From an uncultured Micavibrio sp. (lineage in GTDB: Bacteria > Pseudomonadota > Alphaproteobacteria > Micavibrionales > Micavibrionaceae): a DNA stretch of 33,029 bases. The notes below the pieces were generated by a model. That model was not told the DNA's origin and ran no database searches. It saw nothing but the letters and a program-made list of their open reading frames with translations. Of this stretch, positions 19,698 through 24,896 are shown piece after piece (the first letter of the stretch is position 1; every line of letters begins with the position of its first letter). The stretch spans positions 1 through 33,029 of the forward strand of contig CAZVSN010000002.1 of assembly GCA_964629455.1 (NCBI GenBank). Reading direction: 5' to 3'. The translations under genes and the position numbers were made by a program.

Positions 19698-21080
19698 TTG
19701 ATTTTGCCATCTTATTTCTTTTGTGGCATCGGGGGGAGCGGAATGCTCCCTCTTGCTTTAATATGTAACGGGCAGGGGATGCGTATTGTCGGCTCCGACC
19801 GCGGGCATGATCAGGGACGCACGCCTGAGAAGTTTTCCTATCTGGAACGGCAGGGGATTCGTGTTGTCCCTCAAGATGGCCTGGGATTGACCACAGATTT
19901 TGATGCGCTGGTTATATCCAGTGCGGTAGAAGACACAATCCCAGAGGTAAAACGTGCCAAGGAATTGGGCGTGCCCATTTTGAAACGTGCGGAATTACTC
20001 GCCAGTCTTTTTGATGCGGCCACTATCCGCGTTGGAATAGGTGGAACAAGTGGTAAGTCCACCACGACAGGGATGCTGGCGTGGATATTAGAAGATTGCG
20101 GCAAGCGCCCAACAGTGATGAACGGGGCAAATTTTCTGAATTTTGTATCGGCTGATACCCCCTTTGCCTCGGCATTGGTAGGGGGAAAAGACCTGTTTGT
20201 GACCGAATGCGATGAAAGTGACGGGTCAATTGTCCTCTATCACCCGACCATTGCTGTCCTGAATAACATCGCGCTTGACCATAAACCAGTGGCGGAATTG
20301 ATCCCCGTTTTTGACCAATTTTTGGCGCAGTCGGATACACAGGTTTTAAACATCGATAATGACGCAGTCGCGAGTATGGCGGCGGGCTATGCCGCTACCG
20401 CAATGACGGTTGGCATCACCCATAAAAATGCGCGGCTACAGGCCTCCTCCCTGATACCCTCCCCCGATGGAATATCCGCAGAAATCTGCGATACACAGAC
20501 TGGTGAGAGGGGGGTAATTTCGCTCAAAGTGATTGGTCGTCACAACGTTGAAAATGCCCTCTGTGCCATTGGTGCCGCTCTGCTTTCGGGGGTCAGTTTG
20601 GCAGATTCTTGTCGCGCATTATCGGGATTTTTGGGGGTTGGCCGTAGGTTGCAGACTGTTAAAAATACAAATAATATCAGTGTGATAGATGATTTTGCTC
20701 ATAATCCAGATAAAATACGCGCCTCACTTCATTCATTAAACGAGTTTTCTGGGCGTTTGCTGGTTATGTTTCAAATGCACGGATATGGGCCATTCCGCCT
20801 GATGAAGGATGAATTGATGGCGGCCTTTGTGGACGGGATGAAGGCAGGGGATATCCTCTATATGCCAGACGTGCTTTATATGGGTGGTACAGTCGATAAA
20901 TCTTATAATTCTCAAATGTTTATCGATGAATGCTCAAGTAAAGGTTTAAAGGCAATTTATATCCCGAACCGTGCCGATATCGCCCCCGCCTTACGGGCAG
21001 AGGCCAAGGCGGGCGACCGCATCGTCATCATGGGTGCGCGCGACGACACGTTGACCGAATTTGCCAAGTCGATTTTATAA
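19698..21080 (+). CDS. Mur ligase family protein (MurC/Mpl-like paralog outside a dcw cluster)
   Basis: N-terminal GIGGSGM Rossmann motif, Mur-ligase P-loop GIGGTSGKSTTTGMLAWIL, and DDFAHNP in the C-domain. No in-frame ATG lies upstream of the first motif. TTG 19698 and TTG 19704 are both candidate starts, and the SD AGGGGAGG (19689-19696) favours 19704. Confidence 0.85.
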   Translation: MILPSYFFCGIGGSGMLPLALICNGQGMRIVGSDRGHDQGRTPEKFSYLERQGIRVVPQDGLGLTTDFDALVISSAVEDTIPEVKRAKELGVPILKRAELLASLFDAATIRVGIGGTSGKSTTTGMLAWILEDCGKRPTVMNGANFLNFVSADTPFASALVGGKDLFVTECDESDGSIVLYHPTIAVLNNIALDHKPVAELIPVFDQFLAQSDTQVLNIDNDAVASMAAGYAATAMTVGITHKNARLQASSLIPSPDGISAEICDTQTGERGVISLKVIGRHNVENALCAIGAALLSGVSLADSCRALSGFLGVGRRLQTVKNTNNISVIDDFAHNPDKIRASLHSLNEFSGRLLVMFQMHGYGPFRLMKDELMAAFVDGMKAGDILYMPDVLYMGGTVDKSYNSQMFIDECSSKGLKAIYIPNRADIAPALRAEAKAGDRIVIMGARDDTLTEFAKSIL

Positions 21081-21127
21081 GTGATTTTCATATTATATTG
21101 AAATAATCACATATTTTATGCTATCAT

Positions 21128-21151
21128 CCTCTATAATAAAGATTATAGAGG
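21128..21151 (+). promoter_or_regulatory. perfect 9-bp inverted repeat overlapping a TATAAT box and the SD of the 21162 gene
   Basis: CCTCTATAA (21128-21136) / TTATAGAGG (21143-21151) with a 6-nt loop. The left arm contains TATAAT (21132-21137). The right arm contains the only SD-like element (GAGGG) about 10 nt before the ATG at 21162. Confidence 0.4.
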
Positions 21152-21161
21152 GATAACAACA

Positions 21162-21593
21162 ATGATTAATTTAGAAGAAAGCTTTACAAGCCAATCCGCC
21201 GAATGGCCATCTGATAGAAAAGCGGCTCATATTTTGGCTGCATGGGGATTGGGCCTTATTGATAATAACAAGAACCTTAAAACCCCACATATTATTTTTG
21301 CAACCATGCTTTCCGATCCATATAACCTTAAGCCTGCCAGTGAATTGGATACAAAAACCTATGCCGCAATGCCCGCACCAGAAAAACTGAATGCACTCGC
21401 TCTTGAGGATATTTTAAGAACAAAAAAAATTGGTATAGAGCTATGTTTAGAATTAAATCACTATGCAGAGTTTGGGGATGTGCTGGAAAATGGCCCAATG
21501 GCTTCTAAGGTTTTAAATTCAGGATATTCAAAGACTTCTGATGAATCTTTGTTGAATAAAACAAAAGGACTTTTGCACGCTGTATTTAGATGA
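21162..21593 (+). CDS. hypothetical protein (orphan, no recognised motif)
   Basis: 143-aa ORF with an SD-like GAGGG upstream and a GC-rich terminator downstream. I recognise no family signature. Confidence 0.6.
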   Translation: MINLEESFTSQSAEWPSDRKAAHILAAWGLGLIDNNKNLKTPHIIFATMLSDPYNLKPASELDTKTYAAMPAPEKLNALALEDILRTKKIGIELCLELNHYAEFGDVLENGPMASKVLNSGYSKTSDESLLNKTKGLLHAVFR

Positions 21594-21632
21594 GAGTATC
21601 CATTATATTTCACTAATTGATAGGGTTTAAAC

Positions 21633-21667
21633 AGGGCGCAGGGCATATCCTCGCGCCCTTTGTATTT
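21633..21667 (+). terminator. intrinsic terminator after the 21162..21593 gene
   Basis: Stem AGGGCGC (21633-21639) / GCGCCCT (21653-21659), extended by AGG/CCT with one bulge, followed by TTGTATTT. Confidence 0.7.
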
Positions 21668-21736
21668 ACATATAATTAATAAATATGACATAAAATAATA
21701 ATAATTTTAAACAAATAAGGATAGATTGGTGCTGTT

Positions 21737-22120
21737 ATGGTGAATGAATATAAACTGCAAGCAGATGAATATTTAAAGAAAAATGGGATCGAAAAAACAC
21801 AGGAACTGGATAGCAATGCAACAGCAAATGTAGACAACGAATCTATACGATTAGGGTTACAAACACTTGACGTACGACTAGAACCTACACCAAAAGGCTG
21901 CGAAATTTTAAAAGAAAATATGGCTAGCTATAATACAGCCTTAGCCATGAAGGCAGGAACCATGGAAACCTTGCATGAAAATAAAGCAAGTTTTGGGTGG
22001 ATGTCATCTGAGAGTGTTAATGTGAAAAATGAATTAGCTGAATCGGCCAATGAAGTCGCCAAAGAAAAATGCGGTTCTAACTATGGGGCAGCTTTAATTA
22101 AACAGGATTTCAAATTCTAA
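21737..22120 (+). CDS. hypothetical protein (orphan)
   Basis: 127-aa ORF with only a weak SD (GGTG 5 nt upstream). Its stop overlaps the stop of the convergent 22117..22374 gene (CTAA). No recognised motif. Confidence 0.5.
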   Translation: MVNEYKLQADEYLKKNGIEKTQELDSNATANVDNESIRLGLQTLDVRLEPTPKGCEILKENMASYNTALAMKAGTMETLHENKASFGWMSSESVNVKNELAESANEVAKEKCGSNYGAALIKQDFKF

Positions 22121-22374
22121 ATATCCGTCAGATCGACAAGGGAACCAAGATTACGATTGGCAGGGCGCAGGACAACAGTACTGCGCTCTTGCTTTTCAGC
22201 ATCTTTCAAGAAATTGGCAAAAGATTTGCGGTTTTCGTTGTCGGTGCCCTGGGCCGCAGAGGTTGCCTTAATTGCACGGAAATTGGATGAATAGATCCAT
22301 TTATCGAATTCACCGTTTTTTGATGAATCGATTGAGTTGATGCGTGTATTGGAATACCCGATGATGGGTGCCAT
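22117..22374 (-). CDS. small hypothetical protein (85 aa)
   Basis: A strong SD GAGGA lies 7 nt upstream of the ATG. The base composition resembles the core genes. The gene is co-directional with mazG, which ends 73 nt upstream. No recognised motif. Confidence 0.65.
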   Translation of the reverse strand: MAPIIGYSNTRINSIDSSKNGEFDKWIYSSNFRAIKATSAAQGTDNENRKSFANFLKDAEKQERSTVVLRPANRNLGSLVDLTDI

Positions 22375-22447: not shown

Positions 22448-23245
22448 CTATTTGTTAATTTTTGTCTTCTGCATCTGCCACAACTCATCCCATTCCGCAT
22501 AGGTGAGGGTGTTTATATCTTTATTTTTTAGTTTAATTTCATGTTCCATGCCACTGAAACGATTGTAAAATTTGTTATTTGCCTTACGGAGGGTTTCCTC
22601 AGAATCTAGGTCAAGCCAGCGCGCCAATTGGACAACAGTAAAGAACACATCGCCCAGTTCTTCTTCCTGTTTTTTGATGTCGCCTGCATTGACCTCGACA
22701 CGAAATTCTTCCAATTCCTCGATAATTTTGTCGATAACCTCGTTGATATTCCCCCATTCAAAACCGACTTTGGCGGCGCGTTTGGCGATTTTTTGGGCGC
22801 GGATAAGGGCAGGGAACGCAACAGGAACATCATCCAGAATGGATGTTTTCGGGCGCGATGCTTTTTCTTCGGTATCCTTGACCGACTGCCAGATGTTCAT
22901 GACATCTGCCGCGTTTTTTGCGTCAGCATCGCCAAAGACATGCGGGTGGCGTGATACCAATTTATGGGTGAGTGTTGCAACAACATCGTCAAAGGTGAAT
23001 AGGTTTTGCTCAGATGCCATTTGCGAATGAAATACGACCTGTAACAACAAATCGCCAAGTTCTTCTTTTAAATCGCCCATATGATTGCGGTCAATGGCAT
23101 CCACAACTTCATAGGCTTCTTCGATGGCGCATTTGGCGATGGATTGGAAATCTTGTTCGATATCCCACGGACAACCCGTTTCTTTATCACGCAGCCGCGC
23201 CATAATAGAAAGGAGTTGGTGAATAGGGGCATTAGATTGAGTCAT
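22448..23245 (-). CDS. mazG: nucleoside triphosphate pyrophosphohydrolase MazG (two-domain type)
   Basis: 265 aa with RLRDKETGCPWDIEQDF near the N-terminus and two MazG repeats carrying EExxE/ELGD motifs (EEAYEVVDAI...ELGDLLLQV and EELEEF...ELGDVFFTV). Confidence 0.95.
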   Translation of the reverse strand: MTQSNAPIHQLLSIMARLRDKETGCPWDIEQDFQSIAKCAIEEAYEVVDAIDRNHMGDLKEELGDLLLQVVFHSQMASEQNLFTFDDVVATLTHKLVSRHPHVFGDADAKNAADVMNIWQSVKDTEEKASRPKTSILDDVPVAFPALIRAQKIAKRAAKVGFEWGNINEVIDKIIEELEEFRVEVNAGDIKKQEEELGDVFFTVVQLARWLDLDSEETLRKANNKFYNRFSGMEHEIKLKNKDINTLTYAEWDELWQMQKTKINK

Positions 23246-23726
23246 TGATATAGTCCATTGCGTCTGTCAAATCGCCTTTTACCAGCTTATGCAGACCATG
23301 AATAAGCATCAGATTCAAGGGTAAAGAAAAGTCCTCAATCATAAAGCCGTTCTTATCCACGAATTGATGGTGTGTACCCGTTATTTTCTCTACGATGGGG
23401 GCATGGTTATCACAGTAACCAATGACAATTTTTTGAAGTCCAGCAGCAAAGCCGATTTCCCAGACAGTGCCTGAATCTGGTTCAAATCCTCTGAATTCAT
23501 TCAGATTGGCCAGTACAATATCTGCTTGGCGGATCATGTCCACATTGGCCTGAAAAATGGCATGAGATAGATTTTCTTGGTTCTTTGGAAATGCATTGTC
23601 CAATGGAAATAAAGGAATATGTCCGTATGAACTGACAATCGTTGATAAATTTTTTCCGTGTGTAACAGCATCAGGCATAAATACGTCAGGGCCAGCCAGA
23701 TAGATTTTATAGGTTTTTTTGATCAT
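23232..23726 (-). CDS. nucleoside 2-deoxyribosyltransferase family protein
   Basis: 164 aa with the N-terminal IYLAGPDVF motif and the DSGTVWEIGFA motif containing the family's catalytic Glu. Its stop overlaps the mazG start by 14 nt. Confidence 0.85.
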   Translation of the reverse strand: MIKKTYKIYLAGPDVFMPDAVTHGKNLSTIVSSYGHIPLFPLDNAFPKNQENLSHAIFQANVDMIRQADIVLANLNEFRGFEPDSGTVWEIGFAAGLQKIVIGYCDNHAPIVEKITGTHHQFVDKNGFMIEDFSLPLNLMLIHGLHKLVKGDLTDAMDYINDSI

Positions 23727-23792
23727 CAGGGGGCCTTAAATAATGGCTGATAATAATGTGATAATGTATATTATGGTAAATAAAAGCTTATT

Positions 23793-24155
23793 TTAGAAAG
23801 AGGGGGTGTGTTTGGGGTTTGGGCTCATATGGTTGTCGTTTTTAAAGGATAGCACCAAATTGGGCTTTTTCAGATCCGTGCGCACAATCAGCAGGTTGAG
23901 ATTTTCACCAGAGGCTTTGATGTTGTTGTAAATAGATCTGATTTCCTTAGTTAATGTGCGTTCATGATATCTTTGAAAACTCCAAGATTCTGGATGCGCC
24001 GATGAATTATAAATGGTTGCAATTGTGTGATTGTTTTCGGTGATTTTAAGGTGAACGCCTGCGCCGACACTATCCAGAGGTCCGGTTATCCCTCTGCAAA
24101 ACTCGTTGAAAGTCAGGCTGGTTTTTATTGGTGATACTTGTTTTGAGGCTTTCAT
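23793..24155 (-). CDS. small Phd/YefM-like protein, paralog C of a tandem triplet
   Basis: The N-terminus LTFNEFCRGITGPLDSVGAGVHLKITENNHTIATIYN aligns with paralogs A and B and with the Phd/YefM N-domain pattern. The ATG at 24155 follows a GGGGGGA run. The ORF-track GTG at 24167 is an alternative start. Confidence 0.65.
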   Translation of the reverse strand: MKASKQVSPIKTSLTFNEFCRGITGPLDSVGAGVHLKITENNHTIATIYNSSAHPESWSFQRYHERTLTKEIRSIYNNIKASGENLNLLIVRTDLKKPNLVLSFKNDNHMSPNPKHTPSF

Positions 24156-24171
24156 AAATCCCCCCACAGGT

Positions 24172-24474
24172 TTAATTCAGCTGTGATGATATCACAATCG
24201 GTGGTTTTTCAAACCTGTTGATTTGAATTGGAGATGATTCAGGTTTTTCAATTTTTTGGAAAACTTCAAAAAAATTCCGGCGCAAATAAACCTCATCATA
24301 TTGTGCTTTAATCTGAACATCAGACTCTGCTGCGATTTTAAACAGATACGCAATCGGATGGCGTTTTTCAGTGACTTCAATCACTTTTCCTTTATCGATC
24401 AAGCTCAAAACCCAATCAAAGTTCTTTCTTAATTCAGAGAATGATGTTGTTGATGTAACTATCTTTTTTGACAT
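24172..24474 (-). CDS. small Phd/YefM-like protein, paralog B of a tandem triplet
   Basis: TSFSELRKNFDWVLSLIDKGKVIEVTEKRHPIAYLFK is the closest of the three to the classical antitoxin pattern (s-F-sE-h-R-x-N-h...G-x-h-h-h-T-x-x-x-x-P-h-A-h-h). It lies 10 nt after paralog A and 16 nt before paralog C. Confidence 0.65.
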   Translation of the reverse strand: MSKKIVTSTTSFSELRKNFDWVLSLIDKGKVIEVTEKRHPIAYLFKIAAESDVQIKAQYDEVYLRRNFFEVFQKIEKPESSPIQINRFEKPPIVISSQLN

Positions 24475-24484
24475 TTTTTACCAA

Positions 24485-24817
24485 TTATTTTGTAGGGACA
24501 AATGATAAAGTGAAAGAGTCTTTTGGGTTTTTTCTTAGGTGAACCCGCAGATCTTTTTCCTGCCCAGATTGTTGGAATTGGCGACGCATTGCCATCAAAT
24601 TTTGAGCCGTAGTAACTTCTGAATAAGATGTTTGATTGGCTGATGGATAGCTACCTTGATGTGGATTATATTTCAAAACTGCAATCGTGGCATCATTATA
24701 GGTCACCTCTAACGTGATGCCATTCTTAACTTGCCCTAATAAATCTCTTATTCCTGAACTAAACTTGTTAAAAGGAACTTTGAGAATTTGTTCTTGATTT
24801 GAATTTTTGTTTGCCAT
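24485..24817 (-). CDS. small Phd/YefM-like protein, paralog A of a tandem triplet
   Basis: VPFNKFSSGIRDLLGQVKNGITLEVTYNDATIAVLKYN. AGGTG lies 7 nt upstream of the ATG, and a TTGACA hexamer (minus strand, 24879-24884) sits in the 79-nt upstream spacer. Confidence 0.65.
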   Translation of the reverse strand: MANKNSNQEQILKVPFNKFSSGIRDLLGQVKNGITLEVTYNDATIAVLKYNPHQGSYPSANQTSYSEVTTAQNLMAMRRQFQQSGQEKDLRVHLRKNPKDSFTLSFVPTK

Positions 24818-24896
24818 TGGAAAACACCTATCTTTGCCGCCATTATCTTAAGCAGCTTATTTCATGATGGTATTCTTATGTCAACAAATAATAGGG

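Follow-up and report, generated by a model that had tools for sequence, protein, structure and literature searches.

A tandem array of three small genes, A, B, and C, is carried on the minus strand of a 33,029-nt stretch of contig CAZVSN010000002.1 from an uncultured Micavibrio sp. (assembly GCA_964629455.1), and this whole stretch is called the window hereafter. On balance, the array is best read as a lineage-specific set of antitoxin-derived, toxin-independent, basic DNA-binding regulators, and not as a toxin-antitoxin module. The analysis shows the homology of the N-terminal halves of the proteins to Phd/YefM antitoxins, the predicted two-module topology, the lack of a recognisable toxin, synteny, purifying selection, and the variation in copies and alleles among six loci (the window and loci L001, L002, L003, L011, and L012), whereas DNA binding and a regulatory role are inferred. 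Of the options listed in a preliminary description of this DNA, the one that suits the array best, as a putative assignment, is a small family of DNA-binding proteins that regulate their own genes.

In the usual view, a type II antitoxin joins a DNA-binding domain to a linear toxin-neutralising element (PMC10440598). The Phd/YefM antitoxins (PF02604), such as P1 Phd, E. coli YefM, and M. tuberculosis VapB46, have an N-terminal beta-alpha-alpha-beta-beta domain in common with the array proteins. Unlike these antitoxins, the array proteins probably carry a second N-domain in place of the neutralising segment, and they have no adjacent toxin, are basic, and occur in arrays of two to four paralogs.

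The N-terminal half is a Phd/YefM domain

The N-terminal ~40 aa of the three proteins had been assigned to the Phd/YefM type on their residue pattern, and Pfam, a profile search of the PDB, and hhalign all agree with this assignment. Protein B of the window matches PF02604 with E=4.5e-5 and 23.6 bits, under the 29.8-bit Pfam cut-off, and its residues 9-45 are aligned to profile positions 3-40. Seven of the 14 family members match PF02604, including the B ortholog of L002, which scores 37.6 bits and thus passes the cut-off; five of the 14 match PHROG 375, "Phd-like antitoxin" (best E=5e-8). Proteins A and C qualify as members of the PF02604 superfamily through the family profile only, and a search of NCBIfam with A, B, and C gave zero matches.

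Searched against the PDB, the family profile retrieved P1 Phd (E=1.1e-5), VapB46 (E=4e-4), and also 3dbo; for scale, Phd itself retrieves YefM at just E=1.4 with the same tool. According to hhalign, the N-halves correspond to Phd residues 2-39 with 93% probability (P=3e-7) when compared with a Phd-family profile, which is narrow, being built from a P1 Phd search that returned close Phd relatives only. A word-indexed search with the N-half profile returned nothing, known family members included, and is hence uninformative.

The structure of B predicted by AlphaFold2 (AF2) has a predicted local distance difference test score (pLDDT) of 84.7 and a predicted template modelling score (pTM) of 0.75, with four of the five models above a pLDDT of 81. 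Its first set of secondary-structure elements comprises a strand (residues 7-11), two helices (12-17 and 19-27), and two further strands (31-36 and 39-46). In a Foldseek search of the PDB with this model, the N-domain of VapB46 was matched with a TM-score (TMt) of 0.88 and a root-mean-square deviation (rmsd) of 1.3 Å, the half of B that was aligned being unspecified. The high-probability, low-rmsd matches are single N-domains, those of VapB46, Phd, YefM, and RelB2, and one B module superposes on the N-domains of the first three with TMt up to 0.88 and rmsd of 1.2-1.9 Å; the Foldseek E-values of these three matches are not significant because the domain is short.

The C-terminal half as a probable second module

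The C-terminal halves had been described as a novel, conserved alpha-beta-beta extension peculiar to these proteins. That description gives way to another, since the results of Pfam, hhalign, and AF2 are best explained by a degenerate second Phd/YefM N-domain, and the C-half is probably a second copy of the N-domain that arose by internal duplication. Three B orthologs show two separate PF02604 stretches, the second of which is the C-half at profile positions 4-39. When the C-halves of these orthologs were searched alone, they matched PF02604 only (E=6e-4 to 1.5e-3), covering positions 4-39, or 8-39 for one of them. In hhalign, the B-type C-halves fall in register with Phd residues 5-40 (P=3.6e-4), all C-halves pooled take the same register (P=0.018), and the B N-halves align with the B C-halves at P=0.0034.

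The AF2 model of B points to the same topology, as its second set of elements (strand 57-60, helices 61-66 and 68-76, strands 83-87 and 90-96) repeats the order of the first, and the chain stops four residues past the last strand. No toxin-neutralising C-terminal segment was found in B: what follows module 1 is predicted to fold into a second module, and the C-half aligns to Phd residues 5-40, not to Phd-C. Such a segment is nonetheless only unlikely, as one HMMER alignment of the family profile does reach across the C-terminal helix of Phd. A low-confidence AF2 model of C, made from eight sequences, agrees with B in the order of its elements; Foldseek matches of this C model to S-layer proteins and the Rubisco small subunit were dropped for their low TM-scores.

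Across the PDB and BFVD structure libraries, the sole match to the whole two-module model of B is A0A7S5UXR8 (BFVD), an uncharacterised phage protein of 139 aa (E=4.9e-4, probability 1.00, TMq 0.72, 95 aligned columns). This protein differs from B in being 39 residues longer and shares 12% sequence identity with it, so the likeness is one of predicted structure, with homology not established.

No recognisable toxin in the array or beside it

The preliminary description saw no recognisable toxin in the triplet or its neighbours, and the same holds for Pfam and PADLOC, which gave no toxin or defence-family match in a scan that covered the triplet, the downstream deoxyribosyltransferase and MazG genes, and the nearby open reading frames (ORFs) without known function. 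No adjacent gene for Doc, YoeB/RelE/ParE, VapC, or similar toxins was detected in any of the six loci. The downstream genes have strong Pfam matches to Nuc_deoxyrib_tr and MazG, and orthologs of the upstream gene, called TerC here, bear TerC, CBS, and CorC_HlyC matches. The sole PADLOC match, to a methyltransferase model, is at chance level (E=0.033). Homologs elsewhere are never single-copy genes beside a toxin, and a Phd/YefM match does exist; the opposite outcomes are those which the preliminary description had named as telling against it.

Gene layout and promoter-like element

Three minus-strand ORFs lie where they had been reported, with intergenic gaps of 10 and 16 nt and a low GC content as described earlier (Table 1). 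The triplet has 37.8% GC against 44.3% for the window, which places it within the lowest 5% of 1025-nt segments, and the GC content at third codon positions is ~0.30 in genes A and B. Since the gaps are only 10 and 16 nt long, the array has no space for a hidden gene or a toxin remnant. The sequence AGGTG is located 7 nt 5' of the ATG of gene A. An alternative GTG start of gene C at 24167 would give an ORF of 124 aa (23793-24167), but the ATG is the better start because the orthologs begin with MK(A/T/P)..KQ and a GGGGGGA Shine-Dalgarno sequence precedes it.

The claim that the three genes are mutually paralogous stands for two of the pairs, A-C (BLASTP E=5e-9, 30% identity over 92 aa) and B-C (E=4e-6, 22% identity over 94 aa), but A and B give no BLASTP alignment and are therefore joined solely via C and the family profile. 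Every A, B, and C member is basic, with an isoelectric point (pI) of 8.7-10.3, whereas canonical antitoxins are typically acidic.

The promoter-like element upstream of gene A has TTGACA (24884-24879) as its -35 hexamer and AATAAG (24861-24856) as its -10 hexamer, separated by 17 nt of which the last three are TGn. Both hexamer blocks are unchanged across four loci and the spacer between them is variable. A consensus promoter scanner missed the element because the -10 hexamer lacks T at position 6. Two other candidate signals were set aside: an imperfect inverted repeat over the element is not kept in L003 or L011, and an apparent direct repeat, TGAnATAAG, upstream of the array is more simply read as the -35 plus the extended -10. 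At the other end of the array, the spacer between C and the deoxyribosyltransferase gene is ~85% conserved in L002 and L011, and no terminator was predicted in it. Rfam and tRNA scans of the window gave no matches.

Table 1. Coordinates and composition of the array, its counterparts in other loci, and nearby features.
Feature	Locus	Position	Strand	Description
Promoter-like element of the array	Window	24856-24884	minus	Read from sequence; directly after the TerC stop codon
Gene A	Window	24485-24817	minus	ORF, 110 aa, pI 9.8; Phd/YefM-like N-half
Gene B	Window	24172-24474	minus	ORF, 100 aa, pI 9.2; most Phd-like of the paralogs
B module 1 (residues 7-46)	Window	24337-24456	minus	beta1-alpha1-alpha2-beta2-beta3, DSSP of the AF2 model
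B module 2 (residues 57-96)	Window	24187-24306	minus	Predicted second beta-alpha-alpha-beta-beta, DSSP of the AF2 model
Gene C	Window	23793-24155	minus	ORF from ATG, 120 aa, pI 9.7; best-conserved paralog
AT-rich spacer, C to deoxyribosyltransferase gene	Window	23727-23792	minus	Bears ATAAT/ATTAT repeats
Deoxyribosyltransferase gene	Window	23232-23726
MazG gene	Window	22448-23245
Small ORF adjoining MazG	Window	22117-22374	minus	85 aa; conserved
Low-GC segment	Window	21077-22153		~1.08 kb, 35-38% GC
ORF in low-GC segment	Window	21737-22120	plus	127 aa
ORF in low-GC segment	Window	21162-21593	plus	143 aa
Array	Window, L001			A, B, C
Array	L011			A-like + C-like
Array	L003			A, B, C + fourth paralog D
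Array	L002			Frameshifted A, B, C, D remnant; TPR gene inserted upstream, transposase-like gene downstream
Gene D	L003	3285-3584		99 aa as called
Gene at the place of the low-GC segment	L003	5254-5826		190 aa
TPR protein gene	L002	4763-5260		165 aa
Transposase-like gene	L002	6673-7491		HTH_29/HTH_28

Distribution and variation of the array

Only a handful of genomes, all from uncultured alphaproteobacteria, were found to carry the family. With the family profile, a word-indexed search of 5.8 billion proteins returned seven proteins, and HMMER, run exhaustively over 1.84 billion cluster representatives, gave nine matches, eight of them real; P0013, a 1947-aa repetitive protein from the latter search, was judged spurious. 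No match was obtained by tblastn of B proteins against plasmid and phage collections, and nothing was found when genome contigs and JGI metagenome contigs were scanned with C-type patterns.

All places found are one chromosomal site, 3' of the gene for a TerC/CBS/CorC membrane protein, which is occupied by two, three, or four copies in the six loci. An overlapping nucleoside 2-deoxyribosyltransferase-MazG pair follows 3' of the array in the window, L001, and L003, the contigs that reach that far. The order and spacing of the genes are conserved in several assemblies. Orthologs of gene A are present in L001, L003, L011, and L012, with a frameshifted copy in L002, and those of gene C encode P0001, P0004, P0006, and P0008; C is found in all five loci whose contig includes the downstream end of the array. 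At E<=0.01, nothing like the array was matched in relatives whose TerC protein is 74-87% identical. These are metagenome-assembled genomes that carry the label Alphaproteobacteria bacterium or uncultured Micavibrio sp., and in the two of them read in detail (L004 and L005) unrelated genes follow TerC.

The fourth paralog D of L003 is acidic (pI 5.4) and is intact in one assembly only. In L002 (GCA_021733405.1), the TPR protein gene lies between TerC and the array and the transposase-like gene lies after the array; these insertions, together with the frameshifted A and the D remnant, indicate that the array site is prone to insertions.

Selection and recombination

The ratio of nonsynonymous to synonymous substitution rates (dN/dS) is 0.27-0.29 for A orthologs, 0.26-0.43 for B orthologs (0.80 for one pair), and 0.08-0.21 for C orthologs, compared with 0.02-0.20 for the flanking genes. 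Values of 0.08-0.43 for most ortholog pairs indicate that A, B, and C are real, functional genes, and they evolve faster than their neighbours.

Between the window and L001, amino-acid identity is 98% for A, 61% for B, 90% for C, and 97% for the flanking genes; B alleles are thus 39% different between genomes whose flanking genes are 2-3% different. The differences in B, synonymous ones included, cluster in the linker and in the helices of the N- and C-halves, and the termini and hairpins are almost identical. In L012, an L001-type B allele stands beside another A allele, one that is 80% identical to A of the window. When B was divided into six regions, the region-wise ratio of nonsynonymous to synonymous differences (pN/pS) was below 1 in all of them for most pairs, the exceptions being three small regions of 8-11 codons at 1.1-1.3. 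Because synonymous divergence is also high in the central segment of B, the pattern suggests recombination between diverged alleles, not demonstrable positive selection.

Proposed function of the array and alternative explanations

As toxin-independent regulators, the array genes would form one operon and encode small, basic proteins that are paralogs of one another. Each of the three chains would consist of two tandem beta-alpha-alpha-beta-beta Phd/YefM N-terminal DNA-binding/dimerisation domains, and the second domain copy would sit where the toxin-neutralising peptide usually is. With the two modules packed as a putative pseudo-dimer, a single chain may supply what normally needs a homodimer. 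The activity is most likely sequence-specific nucleic-acid binding, that is, a presumptive DNA binding with a role in transcriptional regulation, and the probable targets are the array's own conserved promoter-like element and possibly the adjacent deoxyribosyltransferase-MazG genes. The paralogs would differ in their helices, and hence in specificity. The array evolves by duplication, loss, and recombination of diverged alleles at a fixed site within a narrow uncultured alphaproteobacterial clade.

A comparable route is known from other folds. MraZ consists of two AbrB/MazE-like repeats and F-plasmid TraY of two ribbon-helix-helix repeats, each in one chain, so that a normally dimerising DNA-binding domain is duplicated within the chain to make a transcription factor without a toxin. 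The same evolutionary logic may apply to the array proteins by analogy, although the folds differ, being swapped-hairpin in MraZ and ribbon-helix-helix in TraY, not Phd/YefM.

Several observations weigh against this proposal. For the second module, the C-half of B from the window yields no reportable Pfam match when searched alone, the pooled comparison of N-halves with C-halves is weak in hhalign (P=0.07), and single-sequence shuffle tests reach p of 0.01-0.02 for just two B proteins. A HMMER search of the PDB with C-half profiles gave no Phd/YefM chain, and the two-module model is confident for B alone (the AF2 model of C has a pLDDT of 58). As for regulation, no well-conserved palindromic operator was found upstream of the array, and a locus with quickly changing alleles, low GC, and a varying number of copies looks more like one for conflict or immunity than like one for a housekeeping regulator.

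The last of these points leads to the first alternative, a doubtful but conceivable one, in which the proteins are orphan antitoxins or immunity proteins acting in trans on toxins that other parts of the genome encode or that phages, plasmids, or competitors bring in, with the second module as a possible toxin-binding surface. Orphan antitoxins acting in trans have been documented (PMC11825919), and like them, the array proteins have an antitoxin-type fold without a cognate toxin at a variable, fast-evolving locus: the copy number ranges from 2 to 4, A is pseudogenised and D is a remnant in L002, alleles reassort (the window compared with L001, and L012 with its different A and L001-type B), the GC content is low, and dN/dS is above that of the flanking genes. 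However, described orphan antitoxins retain a neutralising module or an enzymatic activity (PMC11825919), whereas the array proteins seem to be without the neutralising part, having no Phd-C-like linear tail of the kind expected from the modular design of antitoxins (PMC10440598), and they are basic, not acidic. Moreover, these tandem paralogs occupy one fixed, conserved chromosomal site with no mobile-element hallmarks save the transposase-like gene in L002, the family was not found in the plasmid and phage collections, no credible PADLOC match was obtained, and no candidate toxin was identified. The label "antitoxin-only array", which the preliminary description had also considered, is less apt for the same reason, as the toxin-neutralising C-terminal segment that defines an antitoxin is lacking.

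A second alternative, a cryptic module that resembles a toxin-antitoxin system, is improbable. Its toxicity would come either from the downstream deoxyribosyltransferase or from a paralog that, for example, blocks transcription or replication by binding DNA, and the other paralogs would neutralise this toxic member via heteromerisation. The tight operon would suit such a module, as would the presence of C in every locus with the downstream end of the array on its contig when A and B can be lost. The acidic D of L003 (pI 5.4) beside the basic A, B, and C echoes the charges of antitoxins and toxins, and MazG lies 3' of the array, as it lies downstream in the well-known mazEFG of E. coli. Nevertheless, the toxic paralog or enzyme is purely hypothetical, C survives in L011 with a single partner and in L002 with A inactivated, and an acidic D is present in one locus only. 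The deoxyribosyltransferase-MazG pair resembles ordinary nucleotide metabolism, and a transposase-like gene takes its place in L002.

A variant of this idea, very improbable in our view, is a self-contained conflict module made of the antitoxin fold alone, whose single-chain pseudo-dimers would act on one another: one paralog would do harm by binding DNA, and neighbouring paralogs would form heteromers with it and so neutralise it. The paralogs might instead make up a polymorphic recognition or immunity set. If true, either would be a toxin-antitoxin-like system without a classical toxin fold, and it would account for the reassortment of alleles and the changes in copy number.

Finally, the idea that an ordinary Phd/YefM toxin-antitoxin locus has decayed here, or that the ORFs are spurious and resemble Phd by chance, is largely refuted: the window proteins fall under the Pfam cut-off, there is no NCBIfam match, and the family is very small, but all three genes are under purifying selection, their order and spacing are conserved across several assemblies, the gaps are too short for a toxin remnant, several independent profile tests indicate Phd/YefM, and the AF2 model of B is confident.

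A Phd/YefM domain duplicated within the chain, freed from its toxin, and amplified into a small reshuffled array would represent a different route for an antitoxin. If confirmed, the array proteins would be a natural single-chain Phd/YefM pseudo-dimer, a counterpart of MraZ (AbrB/MazE fold) and TraY (ribbon-helix-helix fold), and Phd/YefM matches without a partner would not necessarily be orphan antitoxins or decayed modules. Full-text literature searches found neither proteins with tandem Phd/YefM domains nor arrays of such proteins lacking a toxin, which is weak evidence of novelty. The practical reach is limited, as the family is restricted to few uncultured alphaproteobacterial genomes and the function is putative.

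Variation in the flanking region

The deoxyribosyltransferase and MazG genes of the window overlap by 14 nt. Compared with L003, the pair has 93% nucleotide identity, far above the 77% towards TerC and the 87% farther downstream. The synonymous divergence (dS) of the deoxyribosyltransferase gene is 0.08, against 1.69 for TerC. The array is located at the boundary of this change in identity, a sign that the right flank may have been exchanged recently by recombination.

A second variable hot spot lies ~1.6 kb from the array, where the low-GC segment of the window is missing from the otherwise collinear L001 and a different gene is present in L003. Neither of the two plus-strand ORFs in this segment has a Pfam or PADLOC match. 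The small ORF next to MazG is conserved (82 aa in L001 and L003), except that the window version has a different stretch of ~10 residues at its end, where it borders the insertion.

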